IMG/VR virus record: IMGVR_UViG_2541047861_000010 | Location: 1 to 39,308 of that record | From: a virus | Taxonomy: Duplodnaviria > Heunggongvirae > Uroviricota > Caudoviricetes | Strand: one strand, 5' to 3' | DNA length: 39,308 bases | In this document: positions 2,110 to 35,242 of the stretch, piece by piece | Position numbering within the stretch: the stretch's first letter is position 1 | Layout of the letters: every line of letters begins with the position of its first letter | The notes under the pieces: model-generated | What the model was told of the DNA's origin: nothing | Databases searched by the model: none | Seen by the model: only the letters and a program-made list of their open reading frames with translations | Translations under genes and position numbers: made by a program

Positions 2110-2119
2110 AGATATCCTT

Positions 2120-2836
2120 TTAATTAGGTTCAAAAATTTTAAATTCATTCCACGGCAATTTTTTCCAGTTACTGGATGGATCTTTCAACCATGCAGTGAC
2201 TTCCTTTAAATCACGGTTCGCAGTGGCGACGGGGGTATCGTATATCATTAACCATTTTTGTCGGGCGCGAACATAAGCACTGGCATAATCTTCCCATGAA
2301 GCGAAACAATCTTGTGCTCTTTGAGCATTCAGTAATAACACTATCCAGGCCTGGTTTTCATCGCACCAGCCTAAACCGGCGATGCAACGAGTTAAAAAAG
2401 CAGTGCGCATACAGTCAAACGCCAGCCCATCCAGAACCTGGCCTTGTGCTGCCAGTTGTTCGTAAAAATCATGTGGAGAATTACCAAGCCCTGTAGCCCA
2501 GCGCTGTAATATAACGCCAATTTGTTGACGGAAATCTTCGTTGCTTTGGTAAGTTTCTGTTCCTAGCTCTTGTTTAACCTGTAGTGCAAGTTGTTGACGC
2601 TTATCATCAGTCAACTTTAAATCTAACGTGAAGCCATTTACTGACAGTCCATTACGACGAGCAACTATATCACCAATTGCTAATGCCCACTTACGTCTCT
2701 TTGTTGCTCGTCTTTTGTCCTTGATTAGATCCTTTTCTTTTTCTTTAGCAATAAAAGCATCGATTTGTGGTTTGTTTTTTTTGTATCTATAGATAAAAAT
2801 AAATATTGCGACCAGGAGAACAATGATAAGACTCAT
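2120..2836 (-). CDS. Hypothetical membrane-anchored protein, 238 aa, single N-terminal hydrophobic helix
   Basis: ORF with ATG start; N-terminus SLIIVLLVAIFIFIYRY followed by KKNK looks like a signal anchor. Start overlaps stop of upstream gene (TAATG). Possibly DUF1266-like, unverified. Confidence 0.6.
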   Translation of the reverse strand: MSLIIVLLVAIFIFIYRYKKNKPQIDAFIAKEKEKDLIKDKRRATKRRKWALAIGDIVARRNGLSVNGFTLDLKLTDDKRQQLALQVKQELGTETYQSNEDFRQQIGVILQRWATGLGNSPHDFYEQLAAQGQVLDGLAFDCMRTAFLTRCIAGLGWCDENQAWIVLLLNAQRAQDCFASWEDYASAYVRARQKWLMIYDTPVATANRDLKEVTAWLKDPSSNWKKLPWNEFKIFEPN

Positions 2837-4050
2837 TATTTTTCAACCTCTGACAGGGGTAAGTAATGAGATGTCTGTAATGTCAAACTCTCTATCTCAA
2901 AGGAAATGTTGCTGATATTTTGACCTGCAAATTGCGGATGCCACTCAGCGCCAGGGAATAACATTTCCGCAGAAGTAGCAACTATAGGGTCAATAGCATT
3001 AAGATAATGTAACTTATCAGGTGCGCTGTGTAACAGTAACCACTGCAACTCCACTGAAGGATTTGTAAAATGTTCTAATAAATGAAAGTTATTATGTAGT
3101 ACGCTTAGTAAAAAACTGGTTTCGTATACTTCCGTTACATATTTCCACCCCTGATATTCAGGTGTATTTTCATAAACAATACCCATACCTTCACAATCAC
3201 TATGTCGAACTGCTTGTGGTGATAATAGTTGCAAAAGAGACAAAACATCGTCCGCATATTTTTTAACTGGATGACGATTTTGCTTACCTTTTATTTGATC
3301 AATTTCAAGTGAATCACCAACAACATTGAGAGCAATAGTAACATGAGGAATATTATTATTATCACGCAAACTGAATAACCGTAATTTATGTTGCTCAATT
3401 TGATTTGCATAATACTCACCATAACCACCGGTAAGATTTTTTCGATCATCAAACTGGCCTACGCAATGTTGCATATGCCATGATTCATAAGCCATTTCAC
3501 GACGAAGGTTCGAATGACTGGCATCAAACTCAACAATTTTTCCGTCTGGCACATCAAGTATTGACTTTACAGTATTTTGTTCACTCGGCTGCCACCCTTT
3601 CTCGCGTCGTTGAAGCATCTTTTCATGCTCTTCTTCACGCATTCTGAACGCAACGTAGCAGGTTATGCGCTGTAGTTTTGATTCCAGACGGGTACCACAT
3701 TTCCTGGAAAGAAATTCCACCAACTCCCGTTCTTTGGTTAATATTTGTTGATGATCGGTTTCGATATAATAAAGTGTCGCAGTTGATACTGAGGCAGTAT
3801 TAAACTTCGATACCAGCCATTCCGGGATTACATCATCATTTTTATTAAACAGTGAATATTCTGCAAGCGAGTTAATTTGTTGCACCATTGGAAAGTCACT
3901 AATTAGCCATCGATAAAAATGGTTGAGTAACCATTTTTGGATGGTCTCATTATCCTGGCGAAACAGACTTCTTTGCAAAATTGCTGTTTTTACTTCCGGG
4001 GCATTAATTACATCCCTTGCATTATAATTCTGGTGAATATTTCCAGTCAT
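2836..4050 (-). CDS. Hypothetical protein, 404 aa; first gene of AT-rich three-gene operon
   Basis: ORF with ATG start at 4048-4050. Hand-counted GC of a 60-nt sample in this island is about 32 percent, versus about 60 percent in a prophage structural-gene sample (23161-23220). No confident domain assignment. Confidence 0.6.
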   Translation of the reverse strand: MTGNIHQNYNARDVINAPEVKTAILQRSLFRQDNETIQKWLLNHFYRWLISDFPMVQQINSLAEYSLFNKNDDVIPEWLVSKFNTASVSTATLYYIETDHQQILTKERELVEFLSRKCGTRLESKLQRITCYVAFRMREEEHEKMLQRREKGWQPSEQNTVKSILDVPDGKIVEFDASHSNLRREMAYESWHMQHCVGQFDDRKNLTGGYGEYYANQIEQHKLRLFSLRDNNNIPHVTIALNVVGDSLEIDQIKGKQNRHPVKKYADDVLSLLQLLSPQAVRHSDCEGMGIVYENTPEYQGWKYVTEVYETSFLLSVLHNNFHLLEHFTNPSVELQWLLLHSAPDKLHYLNAIDPIVATSAEMLFPGAEWHPQFAGQNISNISFEIESLTLQTSHYLPLSEVEK

Positions 4051-4537: not shown

Positions 4538-5899
4538 ATGTTTAAACCGGAACTCCTTTCCCCGGCGGGAACGCTGAAAAATATGCGTTACGCTTTCGCT
4601 TATGGCGCAGATGCTGTTTATGCGGGCCAGCCGCGTTACTCCCTGCGTGTACGCAACAACGAATTCAACCACGAAAATCTTCAGCTCGGCATCAATGAAG
4701 CCCACGCGCTGGGGAAAAAGTTTTATGTCGTGGTCAACATTGCACCGCACAACGCCAAGCTGAAAACCTTTATCCGTGACCTGAAACCGGTGGTGGAAAT
4801 GGGGCCGGATGCGCTGATTATGTCCGATCCAGGGCTGATTATGCTGGTGCGTGAACACTTCCCGGAAATGCCAATCCACCTCTCGGTACAGGCTAACGCC
4901 GTAAACTGGGCGACGGTGAAATTCTGGCAGCAAATGGGTCTGACCCGCGTGATCCTCTCTCGCGAACTGTCACTGGAAGAGATTGAAGAGATCCGCAATC
5001 AGGTGCCGGATATGGAGATCGAAATCTTCGTTCACGGCGCGCTGTGCATGGCCTACTCCGGTCGCTGCCTGCTCTCTGGCTATATCAACAAGCGCGACCC
5101 GAACCAGGGCACCTGCACCAACGCCTGCCGCTGGGAGTACAATGTCCAGGAAGGGAAAGAAGATGACGTCGGCAACATCGTACACAAGTACGAGCCGATT
5201 CCGGTGCAAAATGTTGAGCCGACGCTGGGTATCGGCGCGCCAACCGACAAAGTGTTTATGATCGAAGAAGCCCAGCGTCCGGGCGAGTATATGACCGCGT
5301 TTGAAGATGAGCACGGCACTTACATCATGAACTCGAAAGATCTGCGCGCCATCGCCCATGTTGAACGCCTGACCAAAATGGGCGTGCATTCGCTGAAAAT
5401 CGAAGGCCGTACCAAATCTTTCTACTATTGCGCACGCACCGCGCAGGTTTACCGTAAAGCTATCGATGACGCCGCTGCGGGCAAACCGTTCGATACCAGC
5501 CTGCTGGAAACGCTGGAAGGTCTGGCGCATCGTGGCTATACCGAAGGTTTCCTGCGTCGTCATACCCACGACGATTATCAGAACTACGAATACGGTTATT
5601 CGGTTTCTGACCGCCAGCAGTTTGTTGGTGAGTTTACCGGTGAGCGCAAGGGGGAGCTCGCGGCGGTAGCGGTGAAAAATAAATTCTCCGTTGGCGACAG
5701 CCTTGAGCTGATGACGCCGCAAGGCAACATTAACTTTACCCTTGAGCATATGGAAAACGCCAAAGGTGAAGCGATGCCGGTCGCACCAGGCGATGGTTAT
5801 ACTGTGTGGCTCCCGGTGCCGCAGGATCTTGAGCTAAATTACGCGCTGCTGATGCGTAATTTCTCCGGGGAAACCACGCGTAACCCCCACGGTAAGTGA
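4538..5899 (+). CDS. yegQ: Peptidase U32-family protein YegQ (tRNA hydroxylation protein TrhP)
   Basis: 453-aa translation beginning MFKPELLSPAGTLKNMRYAFAYGADAVYAGQPRYSLRVRNNEF matches my recollection of E. coli YegQ in length and sequence; followed by cyaR as in E. coli K-12. Confidence 0.9.
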   Translation: MFKPELLSPAGTLKNMRYAFAYGADAVYAGQPRYSLRVRNNEFNHENLQLGINEAHALGKKFYVVVNIAPHNAKLKTFIRDLKPVVEMGPDALIMSDPGLIMLVREHFPEMPIHLSVQANAVNWATVKFWQQMGLTRVILSRELSLEEIEEIRNQVPDMEIEIFVHGALCMAYSGRCLLSGYINKRDPNQGTCTNACRWEYNVQEGKEDDVGNIVHKYEPIPVQNVEPTLGIGAPTDKVFMIEEAQRPGEYMTAFEDEHGTYIMNSKDLRAIAHVERLTKMGVHSLKIEGRTKSFYYCARTAQVYRKAIDDAAAGKPFDTSLLETLEGLAHRGYTEGFLRRHTHDDYQNYEYGYSVSDRQQFVGEFTGERKGELAAVAVKNKFSVGDSLELMTPQGNINFTLEHMENAKGEAMPVAPGDGYTVWLPVPQDLELNYALLMRNFSGETTRNPHGK

Positions 5900-12774: not shown

Positions 12775-12870
12775 CCGTTTAACTCCGTGGTTAATGGGTG
12801 CAACTATTTTCTGTTGGGCAGTACATGAGACGCTATTTGACCTGGCTGGTCAGTGGATGAAACAACAGAT

Positions 12871-12897
12871 AAAGAAAAGGCGGGCAATCCGCCCGCC
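12871..12897 (-). terminator. Rho-independent terminator after tail-fibre operon gene G
   Basis: Hairpin GGCGGGC-AATCC-GCCCGCC with a T-rich tract on the minus strand (AAAGAAAA on plus). Confidence 0.5.
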
Positions 12898-12902
12898 TGT
12901 AT

Positions 12903-18008: not shown

Positions 18009-18646
18009 TTTGTCCCCTGTGTCCAGTTGTCTCCTGACTTAACACCACCGTGACCGTGGTCATCCACCTGAACGCCGTTAGACGTGAATTTCCCGTCGGT
18101 ATGCTCGATGTTGCCGTGCATCTTCCCGCCCTTCTGCACTTCCAGCGTGCCGGTAGTCAGTTTGTTAGTGCAGACCACTTCCGGTGTGTCCAGGGTGATG
18201 CGGGTTGACGCTTTCACCATGACCACCGGCACCGTGGCAGTAACAGAATCAGAAGCCGTCACGCTGGCCGTTTTAATTCCGCTTACCGTGAGTGCACTGG
18301 TTTCAGGTTCATACTCAATCACCGCCCCGTCAGGGAAACGGATATGCAGGGCATCCGCCGACGCAGACGGCGCGGGGTTATCGCCGGAATAAATCCCCGG
18401 CAGAACGAACGCCGTGTCGAGTTCACCGCCCACGGCCAGAATCAGCACCTGTTCCCCCACGGAAGGTGCCCACCATGTGCGCGAACGCCCGGCACGATGG
18501 GTCAGCCACTGAAGCCAGTCGGTGCACATGCCGCCGGTCTGCACACGGCAGCGACCGGCGTTAAGGTCGGTTTCGACGACAAGACCGGTGCGGATCATAT
18601 TGCGCAGTGCGCGCGCGAGTTCCTGGATATTTGATAGTGTGCTCAT
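18005..18646 (-). CDS. V: Baseplate spike protein gpV (213 aa)
   Basis: Start set at MSTLSNIQELARALRNMIRTG... by recalled similarity to the P2 V N-terminus; the longer upstream extension in the ORF track has no RBS. Confidence 0.85.
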   Translation of the reverse strand: MSTLSNIQELARALRNMIRTGLVVETDLNAGRCRVQTGGMCTDWLQWLTHRAGRSRTWWAPSVGEQVLILAVGGELDTAFVLPGIYSGDNPAPSASADALHIRFPDGAVIEYEPETSALTVSGIKTASVTASDSVTATVPVVMVKASTRITLDTPEVVCTNKLTTGTLEVQKGGKMHGNIEHTDGKFTSNGVQVDDHGHGGVKSGDNWTQGTK

Positions 18647-18692
18647 ATGACAATAATGGGGAACATATGCTCGAAAAACTATTGCAACCCGT

Positions 18693-18710
18693 TGTATCAT
18701 TTTCGGCACA
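18693..18710. promoter_or_regulatory. Candidate Ogr-box dyad TGT-N12-ACA in the V/moron divergent intergenic region
   Basis: TGTATCATTTTCGGCACA read directly; it has the recalled P2 late-promoter dyad form. Its spacing to the V start does not fit the canonical -55 position, so the assignment is tentative. Confidence 0.3.
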
Positions 18711-18729
18711 ACCAAGAAGGAGCCGAAGC

Positions 18730-19473
18730 ATGGATAAATATCAAATCTGGGAAAAACAAAAAGACACCATCGCCCATAAAGAATATTTAAAAATTTCCGA
18801 CACCAATTTACTTGGACATATACACATTGCCAATTATGAGGTGATTCAAAGTGAATTAAGCAAATTCAACTCTCCTGAAATTGTACTCCACTACTCACTT
18901 AATAGAAATGAATTAAAAAAAGAGAGCATAAATATATCAAGACATTTTCTCAACTATATCTCCTCAGCATTATCACTTAGAGATTCAACTCGAAATCTAC
19001 ATAAAATTAATGTGTTAAATATTGATAACATTACCAATAAATCCAGAGAAATCATCAATGAAGAATTTTTAAAAAATCCAATCATCAAATTAATGGAGGA
19101 TTTAAGAAACATCCTAACCCATCAAAAAATGATCTCCCCATTAATATCATCATTTATGCACCTCCAGAAAAAAATAAACATACACGGATTTGCATTTAAG
19201 ATTGAAACCATACTGGAGAATGACCGACTTTCTGGTAAATCAAAAGAATACCTGAAGTCAACAGAACAAAAAAATTTATTCATCTTGCCGATAATAGAGG
19301 AATACCAATACACAACTCTTAAATACCAGCACTGGCTTTTAGCTTGTATCCACAATGCTCATCAAAATACATACCCAGAATACTGGGAAGCAAGAAAAAA
19401 CATAATGGACGTCTGGGGTGGAGATATCCAACTAATACCTGAAGAGAGTGCCCTCACTTATTTGACCAGATAA
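18730..19473 (+). CDS. Hypothetical protein (247 aa), AT-rich moron at the P2 orf30 position between V and S
   Basis: ATG at 18730 with AAGGAG 10 nt upstream; hand-counted GC of a 60-nt sample is about 22 percent; opposite strand to all flanking tail genes. No recognisable domain. Confidence 0.7.
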   Translation: MDKYQIWEKQKDTIAHKEYLKISDTNLLGHIHIANYEVIQSELSKFNSPEIVLHYSLNRNELKKESINISRHFLNYISSALSLRDSTRNLHKINVLNIDNITNKSREIINEEFLKNPIIKLMEDLRNILTHQKMISPLISSFMHLQKKINIHGFAFKIETILENDRLSGKSKEYLKSTEQKNLFILPIIEEYQYTTLKYQHWLLACIHNAHQNTYPEYWEARKNIMDVWGGDIQLIPEESALTYLTR

Positions 19474-19506
19474 CAATCTAATTAGCTCACAAACATAAGA
19501 CACCTT

Positions 19507-19529
19507 GGCCACGATATTTTATCGTGGCC
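19507..19529 (+). terminator. Possible terminator hairpin after the moron
   Basis: Hairpin GGCCACGAT-ATTTTA-ATCGTGGCC; the downstream T-tract is weak (TTATAT). Confidence 0.35.
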
Positions 19530-19686
19530 TTATATGATAAAGCGACTACCTTCTATGAGCCCTTATAACTCTCATCCACTGCACATTTTCAAGTTACAAT
19601 TAAAGTTCATTTAGTTGAAATATAAAAAGGATGCCGTAAGAGGATAATGGCGATATTTCATCAATAAGGCGCAAGAAATGGCACAA

Positions 19687-20139
19687 CTAACGGTCGAGGT
19701 GAGCCAGAATAATCTCTTCAATCATCTGCACATCCTCACCGGTAAAGCCGAGCAGGGGACGCGCCGGATAATCAATTTTCTTACCGTCTTTCCGGGTTTC
19801 TTCCGACAGACCGAACTGATGCACACTGGCGATTTTCGGTGACTTCCCGCCGTAAAACTCCATTGATGCCTGCTCCGGGCTGGCGCGGATATGCAAAAAA
19901 CGACTGGTGATAAGTTTCGCAAACATTTTTCGCTTAACACGACCGGTCTTTTTTCTGGCGCTCTGCTGCTGGCGTGGCGCGTAGGGTGTGCCGTCCGGGG
20001 CTTTCTGTGCCATCACCCGACGCTGCTGACTCTGCCGCAGACGTTTCGCCAGTTCGGCACTCAGTCGCCGACGCCCTGACGGTGACAGCGATTCAATCAG
20101 TCCGGTCAGCCGGTCTTCAAAACGCTTAAACTCATTCAT
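19687..20139 (-). CDS. S: Tail completion protein gpS (150 aa)
   Basis: Length and synteny match P2 S. Confidence 0.9.
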   Translation of the reverse strand: MNEFKRFEDRLTGLIESLSPSGRRRLSAELAKRLRQSQQRRVMAQKAPDGTPYAPRQQQSARKKTGRVKRKMFAKLITSRFLHIRASPEQASMEFYGGKSPKIASVHQFGLSEETRKDGKKIDYPARPLLGFTGEDVQMIEEIILAHLDR

Positions 20140-26059: not shown

Positions 26060-27832
26060 ATGACCATCACCACAGACACCACTCTTTTACACGACCCGCG
26101 TCGTCAGGCGGCGCTGCTGTACTGGCAGGGATTTTCCGTGCCGCAGATTGCCGCCATGTTGCAGATGAAACGCCCGACGGTGCAGAGCTGGAAACAGCGC
26201 GACGGCTGGGACAGTGTTGCCCCCATCAGCCGTGTCGAAATGAGTCTGGAAGCGCGGCTGACCCAGCTCATCATCAAACCGCAGAAAACCGGCGGTGACT
26301 TCAAGGAAATTGACCTGCTCGGACGCCAGATTGAACGACTGGCACGGGTAAACCGCTACAGCCAGACCGGCAACGAGGCAGACCTTAATCCGAACATCGC
26401 TAACCGCAACAAAGGCGGGCGTCGCAAACCGAAAAAGAATTTTTTCAGTGACGAGGCCATCGAAAAGCTGGAGCAGATTTTCTTTGAGCAGTCTTTCGAA
26501 TATCAGTTGCACTGGTATCGCGCCGGGCTTGAGCACCGCATCCGCGATATCCTGAAATCCCGCCAGATTGGCGCGACGTTTTATTTTTCCCGCGAGGCGC
26601 TGCTGCGCGCCCTGAAAACCGGTCATAACCAGATTTTTCTGTCGGCCAGTAAAACGCAGGCGTATGTGTTCCGCGAATACATCATCGCCTTTGCCCGGCT
26701 GGTTGACGTTGACCTGACCGGTGACCCGATTGTCCTGGGCAATAACGGCGCAAAACTGATTTTTCTCGGCACCAACTCCAACACCGCACAGAGCCATAAC
26801 GGCGACCTGTACGTCGATGAGATTTTCTGGATCCCGAATTTTCAGGTACTGCGTAAGGTGGCATCAGGTATGGCCTCACAGAGTCACCTGCGCTCGACCT
26901 ATTTCTCCACCCCGTCCACGCTGGCGCACGACGCCTACCCGTTCTGGTCGGGTGAACTGTTCAACCGGGGACGCGCCAGCGCCGCCGAACGCGTGGAAAT
27001 CGACGTCAGTCATAACGCCCTTGCCGGTGGGCTTCTCTGTGCGGACGGCCAGTGGCGGCAGATTGTCACCATTGAGGACGCGCTGAAAGGCGGCTGCACA
27101 TTGTTCGACATTGAGCAGCTTAAACGTGAAAACAGCGCCGACGATTTTAAAAACCTGTTCATGTGTGAATTTGTTGACGACAAGGCGTCGGTGTTCCCGT
27201 TCGAGGAGCTGCAACGCTGCATGGTCGACACGCTGGAAGAATGGGAAGACTATGCGCCGTTTGCCGCGAATCCGTTCGGCTCCCGCCCGGTATGGATTGG
27301 TTACGACCCGTCACACCGTGGCGACAGTGCCGGATGCGTGGTGCTGGCACCGCCGGTGGTGGCCGGTGGCAAATTCAGAATACTTGAGCGTCACCAGTGG
27401 AAAGGCATGGACTTTGCCACTCAGGCTGAATCCATCCGCAAACTCACCGAAAAATACAACGTCGAATACATCGGTATTGATGCCACCGGCCTCGGTGTCG
27501 GCGTGTTCCAGCTCGTGCGCTCGTTCTATCCCGCCGCGCGCGACATCCGCTACACGCCGGAAATGAAAACCGCAATGGTGCTCAAGGCAAAAGACGTTAT
27601 CCGCCGTGGCTGTCTGGAATATGACGTCAGCGCCACCGACATCACCAGCTCGTTTATGGCTATCCGCAAGACCATGACCAGCAGCGGACGCAGTGCCACC
27701 TATGAGGCCAGCCGCAGCGAGGAAGCCAGCCACGCCGACCTCGCCTGGGCGACCATGCACGCCCTGTTAAATGAGCCACTCACCGCCGGTATCAGCACCC
27801 CGCTGACATCCACCATTCTGGAGTTTTACTGA
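26060..27832 (+). CDS. P: Terminase large subunit (ATPase/endonuclease) gpP (590 aa)
   Basis: Start at MTITTDTTLLHDPRRQAALLYWQGF (GAGG 7 nt upstream) matches P2 P; stop overlaps Q start (TGATG). Confidence 0.9.
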   Translation: MTITTDTTLLHDPRRQAALLYWQGFSVPQIAAMLQMKRPTVQSWKQRDGWDSVAPISRVEMSLEARLTQLIIKPQKTGGDFKEIDLLGRQIERLARVNRYSQTGNEADLNPNIANRNKGGRRKPKKNFFSDEAIEKLEQIFFEQSFEYQLHWYRAGLEHRIRDILKSRQIGATFYFSREALLRALKTGHNQIFLSASKTQAYVFREYIIAFARLVDVDLTGDPIVLGNNGAKLIFLGTNSNTAQSHNGDLYVDEIFWIPNFQVLRKVASGMASQSHLRSTYFSTPSTLAHDAYPFWSGELFNRGRASAAERVEIDVSHNALAGGLLCADGQWRQIVTIEDALKGGCTLFDIEQLKRENSADDFKNLFMCEFVDDKASVFPFEELQRCMVDTLEEWEDYAPFAANPFGSRPVWIGYDPSHRGDSAGCVVLAPPVVAGGKFRILERHQWKGMDFATQAESIRKLTEKYNVEYIGIDATGLGVGVFQLVRSFYPAARDIRYTPEMKTAMVLKAKDVIRRGCLEYDVSATDITSSFMAIRKTMTSSGRSATYEASRSEEASHADLAWATMHALLNEPLTAGISTPLTSTILEFY

Positions 27833-28866
27833 TGAGCAAGAAAAAAGGGAAAACACCGCAACCTGCGGCAAAAAAAATGACCGCCAGCGCCCCGAAAATG
27901 GAGGCATTCACCTTTGGTGAGCCGGTGCCGGTACTCGACCGCCGTGACATTCTGGATTACGTCGAGTGCATCAGTAACGGCAGATGGTATGAGCCGCCGG
28001 TCAGCTTTACCGGTCTGGCAAAAAGCCTGCGTGCTGCCGTGCATCACAGCTCGCCGATTTACGTTAAACGCAATATTCTGGCCTCGACATTTATCCCGCA
28101 TCCGTGGCTTTCACAGCAGAATTTCAGCCGCTTTGTGCTGGACTTTCTGGTGTTCGGTAATGCGTTTCTGGAAAAGCGTTACAGCACCACCGGCAAGGTC
28201 ATCAGACTGGAAACCTCACCGGCAAAATATACCCGCCGTGGTGTGGAGGAGGATGTTTACTGGTGGGTGCCTTCCTTCAACGAGCCGACAGCCTTCGCAC
28301 CTGGCTCCGTGTTTCATCTGCTGGAGCCGGATATTAATCAGGAGCTGTACGGCCTGCCGGAATATCTCAGCGCCCTTAACTCTGCCTGGCTGAATGAGTC
28401 GGCCACGCTGTTCCGCCGCAAGTATTACGAAAACGGCGCACATGCCGGATACATCATGTATATCACCGACGCATTGCAGGACCGCGATTACATTGACTCA
28501 CTTCGCGAAAACATGGCCAGGTCGAAAGGCCGCAATAACTTTAATAATCTGTTTCTCTATGCACCGCAGGGAAAGCCAGACGGCATCAAAATTATCCCGC
28601 TCAGTGAAGTGGCGACAAAGGACGATTTTTTTAATATCAAAAAATCCAGCGCCGCTGACCTGCTGGACGCGCACCGCATCCCCTTTCAGTTGATGGGCGG
28701 CAAGCCGGAGAACGTCGGGTCGCTGGGCGATATTGAGAAAGTGGCAAAGGTCTTTGTCCGCAATGAGCTTATCCCGTTACAGGACAGGATTCGGGAAATA
28801 AACGGCTGGCTCGGTCAGGAGGTCATCCGCTTTAAAAACTACTCACTGGACACTGACAACGGCTGA
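27832..28866 (+). CDS. Q: Portal protein gpQ (344 aa)
   Basis: 344 aa; P2 Q length and position next to cos. Confidence 0.9.
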   Translation: MSKKKGKTPQPAAKKMTASAPKMEAFTFGEPVPVLDRRDILDYVECISNGRWYEPPVSFTGLAKSLRAAVHHSSPIYVKRNILASTFIPHPWLSQQNFSRFVLDFLVFGNAFLEKRYSTTGKVIRLETSPAKYTRRGVEEDVYWWVPSFNEPTAFAPGSVFHLLEPDINQELYGLPEYLSALNSAWLNESATLFRRKYYENGAHAGYIMYITDALQDRDYIDSLRENMARSKGRNNFNNLFLYAPQGKPDGIKIIPLSEVATKDDFFNIKKSSAADLLDAHRIPFQLMGGKPENVGSLGDIEKVAKVFVRNELIPLQDRIREINGWLGQEVIRFKNYSLDTDNG

Positions 28867-29035: not shown

Positions 29036-29054
29036 GTGCTTTCCCCGCCTCGCC
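29036..29054. other. cos site (19-nt cohesive-end sequence)
   Basis: GTGCTTTCCCCGCCTCGCC is the reverse complement of the P2 cohesive end as I recall it (GGCGAGGCGGGGAAAGCAC); located next to Q as in P2. Confidence 0.75.
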
Positions 29055-29095
29055 CGCCCGCTTCATGGGTCGGTTTTAATGCAGTTGTATTTAAT

Positions 29096-29128
29096 GGAAA
29101 AAGCCCTCCAGGACTGGAGGGCTTTTCT
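29096..29128. terminator. Bidirectional rho-independent terminator between cos and the cargo operon
   Basis: Hairpin GCCCTCC-AGGACT-GGAGGGC flanked by A5 upstream and TTTTCTATT downstream, so T-tracts on both strands; about 60 nt past the stop of the last cargo gene. Confidence 0.55.
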
Positions 29129-29182
29129 ATTAGAGTTCGTAAAATGCTCATGCAAATTCACGCGTTATGCTGCAAAAAACAA

Positions 29183-30250
29183 TCATTTCTTAGCTTTCAC
29201 AACCGGATGCGCGCGATCATGTCCACCGCCACGATGCTTAGAAAATATAACCTTTTCATTAGTAAAAGGTTTTTGGCCATAGACACTATCATAGTGGAAA
29301 AAGACGTTCGGAAGATGAGGCACACGGATGAATCCATACTTCACTCTAGTATCACCGATGACCCCAAAAACCCTTGTACTTACTGGGTAGCATAGTTCAC
29401 CACAACGCATCACTAATTCATCTGCTGTTGGGCGTTCAGAAGGTTCCAATTTTAAACAATCTTCTATAAGTTTAATTATTTCATTTGCCAATGGCGCATA
29501 CTGTCTATTTGAAAATATAAAGTCAGGGTAAGGAACATGCGTGCCAGAAAGTATTTTTGGTATAGCCATATAACCAATACCAAAAGGGTATTTTCCAGTA
29601 AGAATCCTGAACATCATCGCACCCAATGCCCAAATATCTGTAGGTTTCGAAACCTTACCTTGACTCTGTATGATTTCCGGTGCCATATATGGCAAAGCCC
29701 CGATAGCCGTTTGCGAAGAACTAATTGAATCTTGACCATTTCTTGCAGCCTCATCAATTTCATCTCCGGCCATCTTTGAAATGCCGAAATCCGTAATTTT
29801 TATCTCTGTAGCATTGATACCACCGCCTACCATTATATTTGAAGGTTTGAGGTCCCGGTGTATGACGTCAACATGATGCGAAGCAGACAGAGCTTTAGCT
29901 AAATTATGAAATATTTTAGCAGTTAAATATGGATCAACACTTGAATAAGTGTCTAAAATAGCCTTATCCAAGTCAACTCCATCAATAAATTCCTCCGTTA
30001 AAAACTCTCTACCCTCATCATCAATGAAGTAATCTAAGGTTTTAGCCACATTAGGATGATTAACCCTTGATGCTAATATTGCACTTCTATGAAACCTTTT
30101 TTCAGCAGATTTATTTTTGGGAGTTTTGAGAGCCACATGCCTCGAGAGAATATTATCCATTGCCAAATAAACTTTTTGCATACCGCCTTCACCAATCTCC
30201 CTCAATATTGTATATCTGCTAACTTGAATTCCTGGAGTCAGATTTATCAT
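29183..30250 (-). CDS. Hanks-type Ser/Thr protein kinase with C-terminal cold-shock-like (OB-fold) domain (355 aa)
   Basis: Kinase motifs present: G-loop GEGGMQKV, VALK lysine, HRDLKPSN, DFG, APE. C-terminal 60 aa (VFGVIGDTRVKYGFIRVPHLPNVFFHYDSVYG...EKVIF) aligns by eye to the CspA pattern. AT-rich; start overlaps upstream stop (ATGA). Confidence 0.85.
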   Translation of the reverse strand: MINLTPGIQVSRYTILREIGEGGMQKVYLAMDNILSRHVALKTPKNKSAEKRFHRSAILASRVNHPNVAKTLDYFIDDEGREFLTEEFIDGVDLDKAILDTYSSVDPYLTAKIFHNLAKALSASHHVDVIHRDLKPSNIMVGGGINATEIKITDFGISKMAGDEIDEAARNGQDSISSSQTAIGALPYMAPEIIQSQGKVSKPTDIWALGAMMFRILTGKYPFGIGYMAIPKILSGTHVPYPDFIFSNRQYAPLANEIIKLIEDCLKLEPSERPTADELVMRCGELCYPVSTRVFGVIGDTRVKYGFIRVPHLPNVFFHYDSVYGQKPFTNEKVIFSKHRGGGHDRAHPVVKAKK

Positions 30251-31311
30251 AACACCACCTCCGGATGGGAAAGGTCAAATGTAATGAAGACCCGCTCTTT
30301 TCTTGGCCGAGAAGTCTCTCCCAGAATAATAACACATGAATCAGGCAAAATATTATATTGCTTTGCAGCTATATTATTCACATACACCTCACCACTTAAA
30401 CTCGATATATAAAACTCTGAACCAGAATATTTCACCTCAATAGTCCCGACCCCTGAATTATTAAAAGCCGCAGATTTATTTGTTGAAGAAATGATGACGG
30501 GTGGAGTGTTATCAGAGATTAACAATGCTCTATGAGAGTTGTAGAGAACGAATTTTTTTAGAGTCTGACACACATCAGCCATATCAGGTCTCTCACAAGG
30601 ATTCGTATCTAAACATTGGAAAAGCAATTCTTTTACCTGAGTTGGTAACTGTATATTAGAATTATCAAAAGGATTAGACAATAATTTTTTGGGTAAAACT
30701 CTCATTTCCGGTGGTAGTGGGGTCTTAGCCAAAAACATGGCCGTTACAGCAAAAGCATATGTATCTATGGATTTTGTAAACGCTACTTGATGTAAAAATA
30801 ATTCAGGTGCAGCATATGTTGGGGTTCCTTTAAAACCTATTGTATTAGCTTCATCAACATTTCTAGATAGTCCGAAGTCATAAATCTTCACTACTCCCTC
30901 AGAATCAATTTTCATGTTCCCAGGCTTGATATCCCTATGAATAATATCATGAGAATGTATCTCAGAAATACCCGAAGATATTTGCCACAAAATTTTAATC
31001 AGATCTTCAGAATTTAATATGCGATCCTCTACTTCCAATAATGAAGGTCCGTCAACATACTCTTCGACTATAGCAATTCCTTTACCTTGATAATTAATAA
31101 CATCATAAAGCTCTACTACATGTTTTGATCTTAATTTCATCAATGCTGATAACTCATCCATCATTCGAGGAGAATCATCAGGATTACTTATGGACTTTAT
31201 AGCGACAAATCTTTCGAGGTGAGTATCCAAGCATTTGATCACGCAACCAAATCCTCCCGAAGCCTCTTCTTCAGTCCTCTTATATCTTGCAGGGAGAGTA
31301 AAATTAGTCAT
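30247..31311 (-). CDS. Hanks-type Ser/Thr protein kinase with C-terminal FHA-like domain (354 aa)
   Basis: Kinase motifs present: GGFGCV, VAIK, HRDIKPGN, DFG, APE. C-terminal segment (SSLSGEVYVNNIAAKQYNILPDSCVIILGE) resembles the FHA signature. RBS AAGGAG 7 nt upstream. Confidence 0.85.
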   Translation of the reverse strand: MTNFTLPARYKRTEEEASGGFGCVIKCLDTHLERFVAIKSISNPDDSPRMMDELSALMKLRSKHVVELYDVINYQGKGIAIVEEYVDGPSLLEVEDRILNSEDLIKILWQISSGISEIHSHDIIHRDIKPGNMKIDSEGVVKIYDFGLSRNVDEANTIGFKGTPTYAAPELFLHQVAFTKSIDTYAFAVTAMFLAKTPLPPEMRVLPKKLLSNPFDNSNIQLPTQVKELLFQCLDTNPCERPDMADVCQTLKKFVLYNSHRALLISDNTPPVIISSTNKSAAFNNSGVGTIEVKYSGSEFYISSLSGEVYVNNIAAKQYNILPDSCVIILGETSRPRKERVFITFDLSHPEVVL

Positions 31312-32470
31312 CTTTATCTCCTTTAGTGGAGTTTTTCTCAGAGAATGAAATATCTAACTGTGAAATATTATCTAACTTATCATTATTGTTAGCTTCGATA
31401 ACATTCCTTCCCTCATCACTCTTTATATTACTATTTTTTTTCTTTGTACGTGATTTCCTTTTCGATACATTTTTTTTGTTAGAAATTTCATTACTGCATT
31501 CTAACTCAGTAACTTTTCTATCAATAACATTTTCAACCGTAGCTGAGTTAGGTATATCTAACGGCGCAGGTTGCACGCTAATTACTTTCATCTCACCAAA
31601 AGGATCCCATAAATTAATTACATCCCCAGATGATACATCCAAAGCACTTAGGATGTTCGAAATCTCAACTACCGCAATCGACGCATTATCAAATCCACCA
31701 AACCAACTAGCTAGATCTATAACTCTTTTAGCGAACACTCCAGTATTATTGGAGTGAGCATATAATTTTCTCAAATTATTACTGTCAATGGTATGAGCAC
31801 CATCTGAAGTTAATGCAACCACCCCAGGTACGAGCCGAATATCGTGAAAATGTATCTCAAGAACACCATCAAGACCTATAAACTGTACTAACTCGCCACC
31901 TAACCTAGAATCAATAACACCTGAGTCACTACCAAGATGCTCATTATATTTCTTTGCCAATACAGCTAATGTATCATCCTCACTAATTTGTTTTATGTGT
32001 TCAGCATTAATGGAATATATGCGACTATCCCCGACATTTATTGCTGTAATGTTATCGGAGTCATCTACAGCTAAGGCAGATAACGTAGCCCCACCGTTCC
32101 CATTATATACTTTCAAAACCGATTCATTTGCTTTTAAAACGGCGATTTCAAGACATTGTCTAATTGGCAAGCCTGAGTGTTTAATTATCTCGGTAAAAAA
32201 AGATGATACGGTCAATGAAGCAGCATTCGCTCCCCCTTCCATCCCCCCCATACCATCTGCTAAAGCGATGACAATCATGTCCTTATTCTTACTAAAAGGA
32301 CGAAATTTTAATACAGCTACCCGGTCTTGGTTCTCTTTCCTAACTAAACCTATGTCTGTAGCAATAGCTGCAGGTAGCATAGATACTCTTCGTACAGATG
32401 AAGAGATATTTTTTCTATGCAGCCAAGCGTGTATCTGTTCATGAAGGATCTCGTAAGAGTCTCGACTCAC
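31304..32470 (-). CDS. PP2C-family Ser/Thr protein phosphatase with Lys-rich disordered C-terminal tail (388 aa)
   Basis: PP2C motifs ALADGMGG, VGDSR and TSDG read in the translation. GTG start with GAGGAGG 4 nt upstream; 3' end overlaps the downstream kinase start by 8 nt (ATGACTAA). Confidence 0.8.
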   Translation of the reverse strand: MSRDSYEILHEQIHAWLHRKNISSSVRRVSMLPAAIATDIGLVRKENQDRVAVLKFRPFSKNKDMIVIALADGMGGMEGGANAASLTVSSFFTEIIKHSGLPIRQCLEIAVLKANESVLKVYNGNGGATLSALAVDDSDNITAINVGDSRIYSINAEHIKQISEDDTLAVLAKKYNEHLGSDSGVIDSRLGGELVQFIGLDGVLEIHFHDIRLVPGVVALTSDGAHTIDSNNLRKLYAHSNNTGVFAKRVIDLASWFGGFDNASIAVVEISNILSALDVSSGDVINLWDPFGEMKVISVQPAPLDIPNSATVENVIDRKVTELECSNEISNKKNVSKRKSRTKKKNSNIKSDEGRNVIEANNNDKLDNISQLDISFSEKNSTKGDKDD

Positions 32471-32691
32471 AGCGCCTCCTCAAGCAAGCATTTCTCCGAA
32501 GCTATAGATTACAAAACACTAACGGCAATTCCTAGCATTACCCACTCAATTCCATTAGAAAACTGACGTAGTACAGTTAGTTGAATATTATTGTGATGAC
32601 GAATGCCAATCCTCTGATCACGCTGATTACAATATCACAACTCCCCGCTCTCCGATTCACAGTATTCAGTGATACAGAATATCACCTCGTA
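32471..32691 (-). promoter_or_regulatory. Probable promoter/leader region of the phosphatase-kinase-kinase cargo operon
   Basis: AT-rich 221-bp non-coding gap between the stop of gene A and the start of the phosphatase gene; no specific -10/-35 assigned. Confidence 0.3.
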
Positions 32692-34977
32692 CTATATACA
32701 TCGTTGATTTATTGGAAGCCCCGGCCACTCATCAACAACCGGATATGTAAATTTTTTCTCGCCATATGCCACCCTCGCACCTCGTGCTAGTACATCCAGC
32801 TCCCACCGTTCCGGCGTGATGCCATGCTGTGCGAGGTCAAACCGGATACGCGATATCTGGTCGCGCTGCGATTTAGTCAGCCTTGCCGATGGCGCAATTT
32901 CATTAGGTTTTAACGGGCCTCCGTTTCTCTGCTGACGATTTGGTGTTCTCAGGCCGTGTTTTAATGCGCCCCTGAGCGCCCTCACTACATCCGGGTCATT
33001 CCATTCGATAACACCTTCATCAACCAGATTAAGTACTGCTGCGGCGTGCTCAGAAGGTGTGGGAGCCGGTAACGAAGTATCACCACCAGTGAGCTTTCCA
33101 CAGTTATTGACAGGACTCCGAGGCGCGGCGATGCCGCTTTTTAAAGTCAAAGGCTCAACGACCGGAACTTTCGGCACAATGCGCCAGTCCGTCGTTCTGG
33201 TGATATGAATATGACGCGCGCCGAGATGCGGCGCGTAAATGCCGACCACCCTCTCGACCTCTTCCTCGTACTCGTTAACGTCATCCGACGGGCTACGGGC
33301 GACTCTGACAGTCTGACAATCGCGCGGGACATTTGCCCCACCCTGCGCGCTGATATACAACGCAAAATCACCACTGTCTGCGGCGGCGCGTGCAGCCTCG
33401 ACGCGCTCGTCAAACTCATCAGCAATGCTGACGCCGCGCGGCAATTTGCGTAGTTCACGGTAAGCCCCCATTGTCGGCAGACCAACCGTTTTAAATTGCG
33501 GGATGCGCCACGTTGACGCCCATGCGGTAACAGCCGCAGCAGTGTCTTTCAGCGGCCTGCCGGTATCGTTATCGAGCTGACCATCCAGTGCATAGCCGTC
33601 GATGTTTTTTGAGATGTATTTCGCGATATACCCCGCAGCACCGCCCCGGTTAAGGTGTTTTGCCTGAAAACGGTTTCGCGCGGCTCCTCTTTCATCGCCA
33701 TCCTCTTTGAGCGCATAGCGACGCATGATTTCGATAATCTGGTTACGCTGGCGCGGATTACAAAAAAGCATCATATGCCAGTGCGGCGTTCCGTCGTGGT
33801 GTGGCTCGACGACACGCAAACCGTAGACCTGTAAATCATTATCCTTGAATGCCGTGCGCATCAGGCTCCAGATACGGCAGAGATAACGCTGCGCATCCTT
33901 TGGATTAAATGCCTCATCGTTCCAGCCGTGATTTAGCTGGACGGTTTTACTTTCGCCTTTTCTGACCTGACGTGTCGGGTGATACTTTGACGGCGCGGTC
34001 AGCGTGATAAACATCCCCACATCACCCTCTGCTGCGGCGTAACGCTCAATACCGGCAATGGTGTTCATCAGCTCCATCCGGCGAATTTCAGGATTAGAAA
34101 TACTGCCCATCACCTTACTGATAAGGTCGATGCGCTCGCCGGTTTCCCTGTTTTCGAGATCACACGATTTAAGAAATTCCAGATTTGCCTGGCGGCGTGC
34201 ACGCACATCACGAATGGCATGTTTACTGGCATAAGGAGAACGGTCTTTATTGACCTCCCCGACAGCAATCAGTAACGCCTCATGCCAGCGCATACGCTGG
34301 CCTTTAAGCTGATGGGTCCACCACTCATCGTTAAACAGACGGGCAATGGCAGAATATGCCTGCCTCGTGGTCATCTGCCCTTTACGGTATTTTTTCCAGT
34401 AGAGCGGGGAAATATTGAAAGCACGTGCAGCACCAGCAACATGACCATAGAGGTGAGCCTGCGCCTCATCCGTAAACAGCGATTCTTTTTCGCCATGCGC
34501 ATCCCCCCAGGCATCGCAGAGTTCCTCATACATCATGAAAAGCTGCGATGAGATACGGGCGGCAAACTTTTTCAGCTCCTTGTCATTCATCCCCGGCAGA
34601 CGCGCATAATGGTCACGCTCTGCCAGAAACAGCAACGACGCGTCGGTGTTCATTTCATGGCGCTGATTCACACGCTCAATGCGCGGCCATAAACGACGCT
34701 GAAAAGTGGATGTGAGAAAATAAAACCCGTGCACCGGGCTTTTATTGCGCCGGATGTAGTCATAGCGTGACGTAAACAGCGAGCGCAAAAAGTAAGGCAG
34801 GCGGTTAATCGTGGATAAAACACCTTGCACCTGACGCATCTCGTCACGTGTAAGGGGTCTTTCGCGCCCGACAGCCTCGCGTGGCGCGTTCCATGCATAA
34901 GCACCGGTAAACGCCTTACCGGTGCCTGCGGCAAATGCTGACGGAGGGACAAAACGCCCGGAGGCTTTAACGGCCAT
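32692..34977 (-). CDS. A: Replication initiation endonuclease gpA (761 aa)
   Basis: Start set at MAVKASGRFVPPSAFAAGTGK to match the recalled P2 A N-terminus and length; sequence closely resembles P2 A. Confidence 0.9.
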   Translation of the reverse strand: MAVKASGRFVPPSAFAAGTGKAFTGAYAWNAPREAVGRERPLTRDEMRQVQGVLSTINRLPYFLRSLFTSRYDYIRRNKSPVHGFYFLTSTFQRRLWPRIERVNQRHEMNTDASLLFLAERDHYARLPGMNDKELKKFAARISSQLFMMYEELCDAWGDAHGEKESLFTDEAQAHLYGHVAGAARAFNISPLYWKKYRKGQMTTRQAYSAIARLFNDEWWTHQLKGQRMRWHEALLIAVGEVNKDRSPYASKHAIRDVRARRQANLEFLKSCDLENRETGERIDLISKVMGSISNPEIRRMELMNTIAGIERYAAAEGDVGMFITLTAPSKYHPTRQVRKGESKTVQLNHGWNDEAFNPKDAQRYLCRIWSLMRTAFKDNDLQVYGLRVVEPHHDGTPHWHMMLFCNPRQRNQIIEIMRRYALKEDGDERGAARNRFQAKHLNRGGAAGYIAKYISKNIDGYALDGQLDNDTGRPLKDTAAAVTAWASTWRIPQFKTVGLPTMGAYRELRKLPRGVSIADEFDERVEAARAAADSGDFALYISAQGGANVPRDCQTVRVARSPSDDVNEYEEEVERVVGIYAPHLGARHIHITRTTDWRIVPKVPVVEPLTLKSGIAAPRSPVNNCGKLTGGDTSLPAPTPSEHAAAVLNLVDEGVIEWNDPDVVRALRGALKHGLRTPNRQQRNGGPLKPNEIAPSARLTKSQRDQISRIRFDLAQHGITPERWELDVLARGARVAYGEKKFTYPVVDEWPGLPINQRCI

Positions 34978-35242
34978 ATGAGCCAAAAGCCTCTGAACAA
35001 CGCTTGCTGAGTTGCTCAACCTGCACGTTTAAATCAGCAAAAGACTTTGCGCTTCCGGTCAGAATATCGTGATGCATCAGGCCGGAAACGAGCTGGCTTA
35101 ATTTCGGGTAATAACCAACCACCGACAGCCATTCCTGACCGGCGTTTTTACCGCTTTCCGCTCTCTTTTTCTCGTGGAGAATAAACTGAAAGCTGTCACT
35201 GGTAACGACATAACGTTCGCCAATTTCAATACGAATACTCAT
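34967..35242 (-). CDS. P2 orf83-like early protein (91 aa)
   Basis: Position between orf82 and A; ATGA overlap with orf82 stop. Confidence 0.7.
   Translation of the reverse strand: MSIRIEIGERYVVTSDSFQFILHEKKRAESGKNAGQEWLSVVGYYPKLSQLVSGLMHHDILTGSAKSFADLNVQVEQLSKRCSEAFGSYGR

Follow-up and report, generated by a model that had tools for sequence, protein, structure and literature searches.

What does a protein phosphatase with two protein kinases do in a P2-like prophage of Escherichia coli, and could such a trio be a defence system that still lacks a name? The question is raised by a minus-strand set of tightly coupled genes, a PP2C phosphatase and two Hanks-type kinases, in the open reading frame (ORF) list of a 39,308-nt stretch of DNA (here called the window, meaning the whole stretch analysed). 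The initial annotation regarded the trio as a candidate anti-phage signalling system and did not recognise it as a named one. Our analysis indicates that the trio is very probably a KKP (kinase-kinase-phosphatase) module, carried as defence hotspot 1 cargo of a P2-like E. coli prophage. This three-gene system has already been published, named and mechanistically described, in a 2022 preprint and a 2024 paper (Guo et al., Nat Commun 2024, PMC11341870), and was known earlier as prpZ-prkY-prkX of S. Typhi. The finding at this locus is thus correct and not new, and the high interest first attached to it, which came from its supposed novelty, is not supported.

Gene content and domain architecture

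The ORFs and the RefSeq annotation of identical DNA contain the same three genes and confirm the coordinates first given for them.

31304-32470, minus strand: pfpC-like gene, PP2C Ser/Thr phosphatase (388 aa, 1167 bp, GTG start)
30247-31311, minus strand: pfkB-like gene, Hanks-type Ser/Thr kinase (354 aa, 1065 bp)
29183-30250, minus strand: pfkA-like gene, Hanks-type Ser/Thr kinase (355 aa, 1068 bp)

The 8-nt and 4-nt overlaps claimed for them can both be read off the sequence, as ATGACTAA between the pfpC-like and pfkB-like genes and as ATGA between the pfkB-like and pfkA-like genes. The encoded proteins divide into the following parts.

31667-32359, minus strand: PP2C domain of the phosphatase (about aa 38-268; Stp1/IreP model)
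31307-31666, minus strand: C-terminal tail of the phosphatase (aa 269-388), made up of a conserved LDVSSGDVINLWDPFGE.KVISV block and, after it, a low-complexity stretch rich in Lys
30565-31260, minus strand: kinase domain of the pfkB-like protein (aa 18-249)
30271-30528, minus strand: C-terminal FHA-fold beta-sandwich of the pfkB-like protein (about aa 262-347; fold comparison)
29411-30214, minus strand: kinase domain of the pfkA-like protein (aa 13-280)
29195-29374, minus strand: C-terminal cold-shock domain of the pfkA-like protein (about aa 293-352; GFI motif at aa 306-308)

Both profile searches that had been proposed for the catalytic domains, Pkinase and PP2C, gave matches above cut-off. 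The phosphatase scores 26.7 bits against Pfam PP2C_2 (cut-off 24), and it matches the NCBIfam Stp1/IreP PP2C model with an E-value of 1.5e-29 over aa 38-268 and phrog_17277 with 2e-194. Against the Pkinase profile (cut-off 31.7), the pfkB-like protein reaches 146.1 bits (E 1.7e-42) and the pfkA-like protein 154.5 bits (E 4.7e-45). The catalytic motifs could all be located, in keeping with the earlier statement that they are intact: the metal-binding and catalytic motifs ENQD46, DGMGG72, GDSR147, SDG222 and FDN260 in the phosphatase; GGFG19 (not GGM), VAIK36, HRDIKPGN125, DFG145 and APE168 in the pfkB-like kinase; and GGM22, VALK39, HRDLKPSN131, DFG154 and APE190 in the pfkA-like kinase.

The C-terminal domains are less visible to profiles. 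At the C-terminus of the pfkA-like protein the Pfam cold-shock (CSD) profile stays sub-threshold (18 bits against a cut-off of 27, E 0.0026). In Foldseek comparisons this region finds cold-shock domains in all of at least the top 30 matches (TM 0.65-0.78, E down to 3.8e-5), the AF2 model of the protein having a pLDDT of 90, and full-length homologues carry precomputed PF00313 or PF14444 matches. The C-terminus of the pfkB-like protein is probably an FHA domain, judging from its predicted fold. When isolated, it has no Pfam match to FHA, and no FHA profile signal was found in 23 family members, either with each member against Pfam or with a 23-domain profile against the PDB. A conserved Arg or Ser-x-x-His in canonical order is not evident in the alignment of the FHA-fold family. 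Of the two suggested checks, FHA thus gave no profile hit and CSD only a sub-threshold one, so it was fold comparison that settled the C-terminal domains of both kinases.

Assignment to the KKP family

The published definition of KKP asks for adjacent PP2C, Pkinase and Pkinase genes on the same strand, each of 900-1300 bp, with PF13672 followed twice by PF00069 (PMC11341870). In the window the order is PP2C, Pkinase, Pkinase, all on the minus strand; the genes measure 1167, 1065 and 1068 bp; and the phosphatase gene has PF13672 (PP2C_2), while both kinase genes have PF00069 (Pkinase). As expected of PfkA, the last protein ends in a cold-shock domain with the GFI/GFA motif, and, as expected of PfkB, the middle one ends in an FHA domain by predicted fold. 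The G-loop, HRD, DFG and phosphatase motifs are present, the G-loop of the pfkB-like kinase being GGFG rather than GGM, and the module sits on a mobile element, a P2-like prophage, between cos/portal and gene A. The trio therefore shares with Pf6 KKP and its homologues the combination of a PP2C phosphatase, a kinase with FHA and a kinase with a GFI-containing cold-shock domain. The C-terminal peptides of Pf6 PfkB and PfkA that can be taken from published primers (FDLSHPE..L and RAHPV) are also conserved in the window proteins.

The KKP catalogue has an entry for E. coli S40 that gives gene IDs for PfkA, PfkB and PfpC and places them in a predicted prophage (PMC11341870). S40 contains exactly one matching locus, and its DNA is 100% identical to that of the window; the window locus is thus itself a member of the catalogue.

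The closest studied relative is KKP-EC039 of E. coli 15EC039, which resembles the window trio in gene order, gene sizes and the ATGA start/stop overlap and sits in the same P2 hotspot, from portal/cos to gene A. An E. coli P2-like prophage with the trio in this hotspot has a PP2C gene whose ends are matched exactly by both published pfpC-EC039 primers. The proteins of this EC039-type allele are, over their full length, 66% (PfpC), 68% (PfkB) and 81% (PfkA) identical to those of the window. We rejected the idea that the window carries the tested EC039 allele itself, as the EC039 pfpC primers find no match in it within 3 mismatches, whereas they match exactly the 71%-identical E. coli allele. 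The two alleles differ in the length and sequence of the phosphatase tail, and the intergenic DNA upstream measures 221 nt in the window and about 130 nt in the EC039-type allele.

Among 5426 complete E. coli genomes, the window allele is carried by 14 (0.3%) and the EC039-type allele, in the same P2 hotspot, by 4. Several of the strains that carry the window allele were isolated from clinical or avian sources. A Megablast search of sequenced phage genomes gave no match to the locus, and a protein search of the same set found one full-length PfkA-like gene, at 45% identity, in Klebsiella phage Kp4865-2.

Position, composition and borders of the cassette

The trio had been placed between cos and gene A, and both landmarks were found where this placement needs them. 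For the cos search we used a 19-nt cohesive-end query that we take to be the phage P2 sequence.

27832-28866, plus strand: P2 portal gene Q, beyond cos as seen from the trio (ORF; RefSeq annotation)
29036-29054, minus strand: P2 cos, 19-nt cohesive end GGCGAGGCGGGGAAAGCAC (exact match; 0.01 expected by chance)
29084-32691, minus strand: variable cargo cassette of P2 hotspot 1 (alignments of the window, S40 and VG12A2; GC drop)
about 29098-29127, no strand assigned: hairpin terminator AAAAAGCCCTCCAGGACTGGAGGGCTTTTC downstream of the pfkA-like gene (sequence; scan match on the minus strand at 29115-29102)
32471-32691, minus strand: intergenic region from the gene A stop to the pfpC-like start (221 nt)
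32692-35019, minus strand: P2 gene A, coding for the replication endonuclease; in transcription order it flanks the hotspot on the left (ORF; RefSeq annotation of identical DNA)

The near-identity of the backbone between prophages with different KKP alleles has two limits: towards cos it stops at about 29083, and at the opposite end it stops at the gene A stop codon (32692-32694). The GC content over 29183-32470 is 37.6%, falling to 20% in the poorest 60-nt segment, against 54.3% in the structural genes, 53.6% in gene A and 52.9% in the portal gene. The operon is thus AT-rich as first described, but the capsid sample of about 60% GC with which it had been compared is near the top of the local range, and the backbone averages about 54%.

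P2 itself carries tin and old here, and to our knowledge neither Tin nor Old is a kinase or a phosphatase. They occupy the same slot, from gene A to cos, in the same role, as exclusion cargo expressed from the lysogen (Vassallo 2022). The view that this position is a hotspot for defence cargo agrees with two published surveys (Vassallo 2022; Rousset 2022). The trio is absent from the main text of Rousset 2022 and from that of a 2026 preprint on P2/P4 hotspots.

The G+C-rich hairpin downstream of the pfkA-like gene has the stem GCCCTCCAG/CTGGAGGGC, an A-run flanking one end and a T-run the opposite end. It looks bidirectional, as had been claimed; the hairpin and both runs are there, and the bidirectionality is a reading of the sequence. 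The terminator is part of the cargo cassette and not of the P2 backbone; in the EC039-type cassette its place is taken by another hairpin.

Upstream of the phosphatase gene, the 221-nt intergenic region holds a ribosome-binding site, GAGGAGG, at 32475-32481. A block at about 32504-32535 (CTAGGAATTGCCGTTAGTGTTTTGTAATCTA), of which part is preserved in the diverged EC039-type allele as well, is a candidate promoter or operator. A consensus scan of the minus strand upstream of the pfpC-like gene returned no sigma-70 match of at least 9/12, and the number of sites in the promoter scan was no higher than in shuffled sequence. Since no clear sigma-70 promoter lies upstream, expression of the trio in the lysogen is assumed.

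Comparison with other kinase systems

[quoted passage not shown] Typhi SPI-10, with which we compared the trio by its architecture in the literature. The S. Typhi cluster lies on a P4-like satellite, whereas the window trio lies on P2, and the S. Typhi literature has centred on macrophage survival. Tested as a KKP module, prpZ-prkY-prkX gave defence against T4 and a T-odd phage (PMC11341870).

Stk2 of Staphylococcus epidermidis and PD-T4-6 of E. coli are likewise Hanks-type kinases that sense a phage and phosphorylate host proteins, leading to growth arrest or abortive infection. Unlike the trio, each of them consists of one gene and has neither a second kinase beside it nor a phosphatase of its own as antitoxin, and C-termini of the FHA and cold-shock types are peculiar to KKP. 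PD-T4-6 profiles match the two kinases of the window (E down to 4.5e-50), over the generic kinase domain only.

Models of some other systems were rejected. The MADS kinase MAD6 matches the kinase domain only and, where NCBIfam demands 460, scores 128 and 112; the BREX kinase PglW scores 30 and 69 against 990. The PASTA-kinase/Stp1 and lanthipeptide-synthetase kinase models are generic kinase-domain matches far below their cut-offs. In the suggested PADLOC check, PADLOC 2.0, which has no KKP model, returned generic kinase matches to PD-T4-6 and to mad6 (the best matches, E 1e-54 and 2e-52), found nothing for the phosphatase and did not name KKP. The window kinases would probably receive the PD-T4-6 label from automated tools whose models date from 2023.

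Mechanism and alternative explanations

In KKP, the two kinases jointly act as the toxin and the PP2C phosphatase as the antitoxin (PMC11341870). Joint kinase toxicity, its neutralisation by the phosphatase and reduced production of lytic phage have been shown for the Pf6, Shewanella and E. coli EC039 modules, and KKP-EC039 protects against T4 and T-odd phages; its phosphatase is inhibited by T4 Gp59, and the growth arrest driven by the kinases blocks phage production (PMC11341870). The initial annotation had proposed a phosphatase that restrains the kinases until infection, which is essentially this published mechanism (PMC11341870).

By homology with the characterised modules, the phosphatase of the window is predicted to be the antitoxin and the two kinases the halves of the toxin. 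Acting together, the kinases would phosphorylate many host proteins for replication, translation and division, and, as long as the lysogen is not infected, the co-translated phosphatase would hold both the kinases and their targets in the dephosphorylated state. When a lytic phage infects, one of its proteins (Gp59 of T4, its helicase loader, in the case of the related E. coli allele) would then bind and inhibit the phosphatase. Kinase activity would rise, growth and division would halt, and phage production would be blocked. For the window allele, we infer phage defence from the 66-81% identical allele in the same hotspot, and toxicity, antitoxin action, defence spectrum and trigger are likewise put forward by homology.

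With PfpC only 66% identical between the two alleles, the trigger and the range of blocked phages may differ from those of EC039. It is tempting to speculate, although we hold it only as a tentative possibility, that the phosphatase of the window senses a protein other than T4 Gp59 and blocks other phages, that the FHA fold serves as a phospho-independent docking site for PfkA or for substrates, and that, in a P2 lysogen, the module also phosphorylates H-NS/StpA with an effect on P2 or P4 induction. The docking proposal follows from the lack of a sequence-level FHA signal and of an evident canonical phosphothreonine-binding signature.

Defence is perhaps not the sole role of KKP, since KKP also controls lysogeny in Pseudomonas (PMC11341870) and the homologous S. 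Typhi cluster has been linked to macrophage survival. In P. aeruginosa, KKP of Pf6 controls Pf4/Pf6 lysogeny through phosphorylation of MvaU, and KKP has been noted in P2 and P4 elements of strains with interacting prophages (PMC11341870). Prophage regulation could thus be the main role here too, the kinases phosphorylating an H-NS-family silencer or a phage regulator and so tuning P2-like or P4-like satellite induction. The trio lies directly downstream of the early operon, and a scan found no minus-strand terminator after gene A, so that it could be co-transcribed on induction. We nevertheless consider this unlikely as the main role: four non-filamentous KKP modules, including the E. coli P2-hotspot allele, defend E. 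coli K-12 without a resident prophage (PMC11341870), and the slot otherwise holds defence genes. Prophage regulation and defence are, moreover, not mutually exclusive. The tight translational coupling, typical of toxin-antitoxin operons, would also suit a pure addiction module that stabilises the prophage by post-segregational killing and gives no benefit against other phages. This is quite improbable in view of the defence phenotypes and the specific phage trigger of the related allele (PMC11341870), and the classical form needs an unstable antitoxin, of which none is known here.

A role in virulence or host interaction, with one kinase acting on or delivered to eukaryotic cells like PrkX (T4519) of S. 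Typhi, appears very doubtful. The same phosphatase-kinase-kinase layout in SPI-10 reportedly promotes macrophage survival, and the clinical or avian origin of several carriers would fit such a role; but the S. Typhi cluster, when assayed, did defend against phage (PMC11341870), and carriage that is sporadic (14 genomes out of 5426 complete ones) and linked to a cargo hotspot of phages fits phage-phage conflict. That the genes are ordinary Stk1/Stp1 housekeeping Ser/Thr signalling genes, present in a prophage by chance, is effectively refuted by scores and distribution. Their best NCBIfam matches are indeed the Stp1 and PknB/Stk1 models, but the scores fall far under the curated cut-offs (Stp1, 103 against 230; PknB_PASTA_kin, 113 and 168 against 450). 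Pfam scans of the trio found no PASTA domain, and a housekeeping function does not suit AT-rich cargo of foreign origin that 0.3% of genomes carry.

Together, these comparisons favour a KKP module as the identity of the trio. As the system is published and named, its mechanism described and this very locus catalogued, the discovery value is small. The practical value lies in annotation: 2023-era defence annotation (PADLOC 2.0) misses KKP, reporting its kinases as PD-T4-6 or mad6 and leaving the phosphatase unlabelled. For the family, two diverged KKP alleles in one hotspot offer a natural start for studying the evolution of trigger specificity in the phosphatase.

A phosphatase and two kinases between cos and gene A

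The initial annotation placed a tightly coupled, AT-rich trio of a phosphatase and two kinases between cos and gene A of the P2-like prophage. Open reading frames, profiles, GC content and the cos match bear out its main points on coordinates, strand, coupling, GC drop and placement.

Features of the trio and its slot
28866, end of the portal gene, bounding the cos side of the slot
29036-29054, exact match of the 19-nt P2 cohesive-end sequence
~29098-29127, G+C-rich hairpin between an A-run and a T-run, directly after the last gene
29183-30250, minus strand, second Hanks-type kinase ORF (PfkA-like), 355 aa
30247-31311, minus strand, first Hanks-type kinase ORF (PfkB-like), 354 aa
31304-32470, minus strand, PP2C phosphatase ORF (PfpC-like), 388 aa, GTG start
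32692-35019, gene A, replication endonuclease, the other flank

The phosphatase and first-kinase genes overlap by 8 nt (GAT GAC TAA over ATG ACT AA) and the two kinase genes by 4 nt (TTA TGA over ATG A). Profile searches for Pkinase and PP2C, as the initial annotation had proposed, matched all three proteins: the phosphatase lies above the Pfam PP2C_2 threshold and matches a Stp1-type PP2C model (E 1.5e-29), and the first and second kinases match Pkinase (E 1.7e-42 and 4.7e-45). The usual catalytic motifs are complete in 3/3 proteins. The GC content of the block is 37.6%, against 54.3% in the phage structural genes and 53.6% in gene A. The cohesive-end sequence has a chance expectation of 0.01 matches, and we take its match to be the P2 cos. 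Ahead of the phosphatase GTG start lies the Shine-Dalgarno sequence GAGGAGG (32475-32481); further upstream, a block at ~32504-32535 is partially conserved in alignment with the EC039-type allele, a diverged trio of other E. coli, and a consensus scan found no clear promoter upstream of the phosphatase gene.

The trio is a KKP module

The three-gene architecture, which the initial annotation did not recognise as a named system, already has a name: KKP, for kinase-kinase-phosphatase (Guo et al., Nat Commun 2024, PMC11341870; preprint 2022). A KKP module consists, by definition, of a PP2C gene and, after it, two kinase genes of 900-1300 bp; the first kinase (PfkB) has a terminal FHA domain and the second (PfkA) a terminal cold-shock domain (CSD) carrying GFI or GFA. 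More than 1200 clusters were found, and temperate phages, P2 and P4 included, account for over 90% (PMC11341870). The window trio has the KKP gene order, sizes and Pfam matches. Of the two terminal domains, for which searches had also been suggested, the CSD was recovered by fold. An AlphaFold model of second-kinase residues 283-355 (pLDDT 90) gave only cold-shock domains as top Foldseek matches (TM 0.65-0.78, E down to 3.8e-5), a GFI motif lies at aa 306, and several full-length homologues have precomputed CSD or S1-like matches. The FHA domain was not recovered by sequence: Pfam gave no FHA match for the first-kinase C-terminus of the window or for any of 23 family members, nor did a profile built from these C-termini retrieve an FHA chain from the PDB. 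The FHA feature thus holds at the level of fold only, because a sequence-level signal is absent.

Peptides deduced from primers for the KKP of the Pseudomonas prophage Pf6 are kept in the window proteins: PfkB ...FDLSHPEINL as ...FDLSHPEVVL, and PfkA ...RAHPV... as ...DRAHPVV.... Even a sensitive blastn search of E. coli S40 found a single locus, and its DNA agrees with that of the window at 100% identity. As the S40 locus, this exact locus is already in the KKP catalogue of Guo et al.

PADLOC gave no match for the phosphatase, and its mad6 and PD-T4-6 matches covered the generic kinase domain alone. Housekeeping Ser/Thr signalling, the MADS kinase and the BREX kinase were excluded by scores far under the curated cut-offs.

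Distribution and cassette borders

Of 5426 complete E. coli genomes, 14 carry DNA that matches 29100-32700 at 99.9-100% identity. In 13 of these 14 the annotation puts gene A directly beside the trio; in NDM2 it puts gene A beside the chromosomal copy. The S40 carrier prophage is complete, P2-like and, by its annotated neighbourhood, integrated by yegR/yegQ. The exact proteins occur in hundreds of public contigs, and relatives of at least 90% identity in Klebsiella, Citrobacter and Enterobacter. Between prophages with different alleles, backbone near-identity ends at ~29083 towards cos and, at the opposite border, with the stop codon of gene A; the exchangeable cassette is therefore about 29084-32691 and includes its own terminator.

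NDM2 carries a second copy of the window allele on "plasmid unnamed3" (NZ_CP083887.1, 43,140 bp), a 43-kb circular record of almost entirely P2-like phage genes; the record represents the phage genome in excised form or else a duplicate of the chromosomal prophage made in assembly. A 1-nt difference splits the phosphatase gene in both copies. Several further phage genes of this record bear frameshift marks, which points to sequencing error as the likely origin of the split; a genuine disruption of the antitoxin would be surprising. Of 50,697 sequenced phage records, a single one encodes a full-length PfkA-like kinase (Klebsiella phage Kp4865-2, OK490418.1, 8633-9664; 45% identity, 96% coverage), and KKP is thus common in prophages and almost absent from the isolated phage genomes there.

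Other variable regions in the window

An AT-rich insert of ~1 kb (18640-19690, 33-41% GC) separates P2 baseplate gene V from virion-morphogenesis gene S. Its one ORF (18607-19473, on the opposite, plus strand) encodes 288 aa from a GTG or, more likely, 247 aa from Met42; it matches phrog_12680, whose function is unannotated (E 6e-158), and had no match in Pfam or PADLOC. Of 5426 complete E. coli genomes, only 18 carry the insert at a coverage of at least 80%; it is lacking from the S40 prophage and may mark another place where P2-like phages carry cargo (morons). The Z/fun position, the second P2 hotspot for cargo, lies between the genes for tail-fibre assembly and tail sheath and appears empty in this prophage (12775-12902), with ~130 nt between 175-aa and 396-aa ORFs identified by length and order alone; S40 has three small genes there.

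To the left of yegQ (4538-5899), beyond the prophage, an AT-rich three-gene block (1-4050, minus strand, 35-44% GC) encodes DUF4034 (715 aa), DUF1266 (238 aa) and PcfJ-like (404 aa) proteins, none matched in PADLOC. The corresponding side in S40 carries instead yegP and a toxin-antitoxin pair of the ParD/ParE family (RelE/ParE toxin), and this flank is therefore variable too.

Proposed mechanism and relation to KKP-EC039

In Pf6, toxicity needs both kinases together and requires their HRD/DFG motifs, CSD and FHA domains; neutralisation by the phosphatase depends on its catalytic activity, and the targets of the kinases include many replication, translation and division proteins (PMC11341870). 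Four modules outside filamentous phages, among them KKP-EC039 of E. coli and the S. Typhi module, conferred phage defence when tested in E. coli K-12. For KKP-EC039, T4 escape mutations led to the helicase loader Gp59, a protein that binds PfpC-EC039, lowers its activity modestly and triggers toxicity (PMC11341870). By analogy with these characterised modules, the kinases of the window allele would act as toxin and the phosphatase as antitoxin, and the initial proposal of a phosphatase restraining kinases fired by infection was essentially right. Structure, domains, motifs, position and homology are observed for the window allele; its toxicity, antitoxin action, trigger and phage range are inferred from its relatives.

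Other roles have been described or can be conceived. The module could control lysogeny by phosphorylating an H-NS-family silencer, as documented in Pf6 (PMC11341870), and in P2 such a role could go together with defence. For the homologous prpZ-prkY-prkX cluster in S. Typhi a part in virulence has been claimed, and a pure addiction module is possible, as for any toxin-antitoxin system.

The toxin-antitoxin defence reading draws on KKP-EC039, which is a different allele, since the two pfpC-EC039 primers fail to match the window. Both match exactly at the two PP2C gene ends of a 71%-identical trio, which four other complete E. coli genomes carry in the same P2-like prophage slot; the full-length proteins of that trio share 66% (PfpC), 68% (PfkB) and 81% (PfkA) identity with those of the window. 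The phosphatase extends ~120 aa past its PP2C domain (PfpC aa 269-388, window 31307-31666; 8113-8500 in L002, the aligned EC039-type locus), without a Pfam match. A block of this tail, LDVSSGDVINLWDPFGE.KVISV, is nearly identical in the two E. coli alleles; after it come a Lys-rich low-complexity stretch that varies and an acidic end that is conserved, ISQLD.SF.E.NS.KGD.DD. The extension could dock onto the kinases or onto the phage trigger. Because its phosphatase has diverged, the window allele could respond to a trigger different from that of KKP-EC039.
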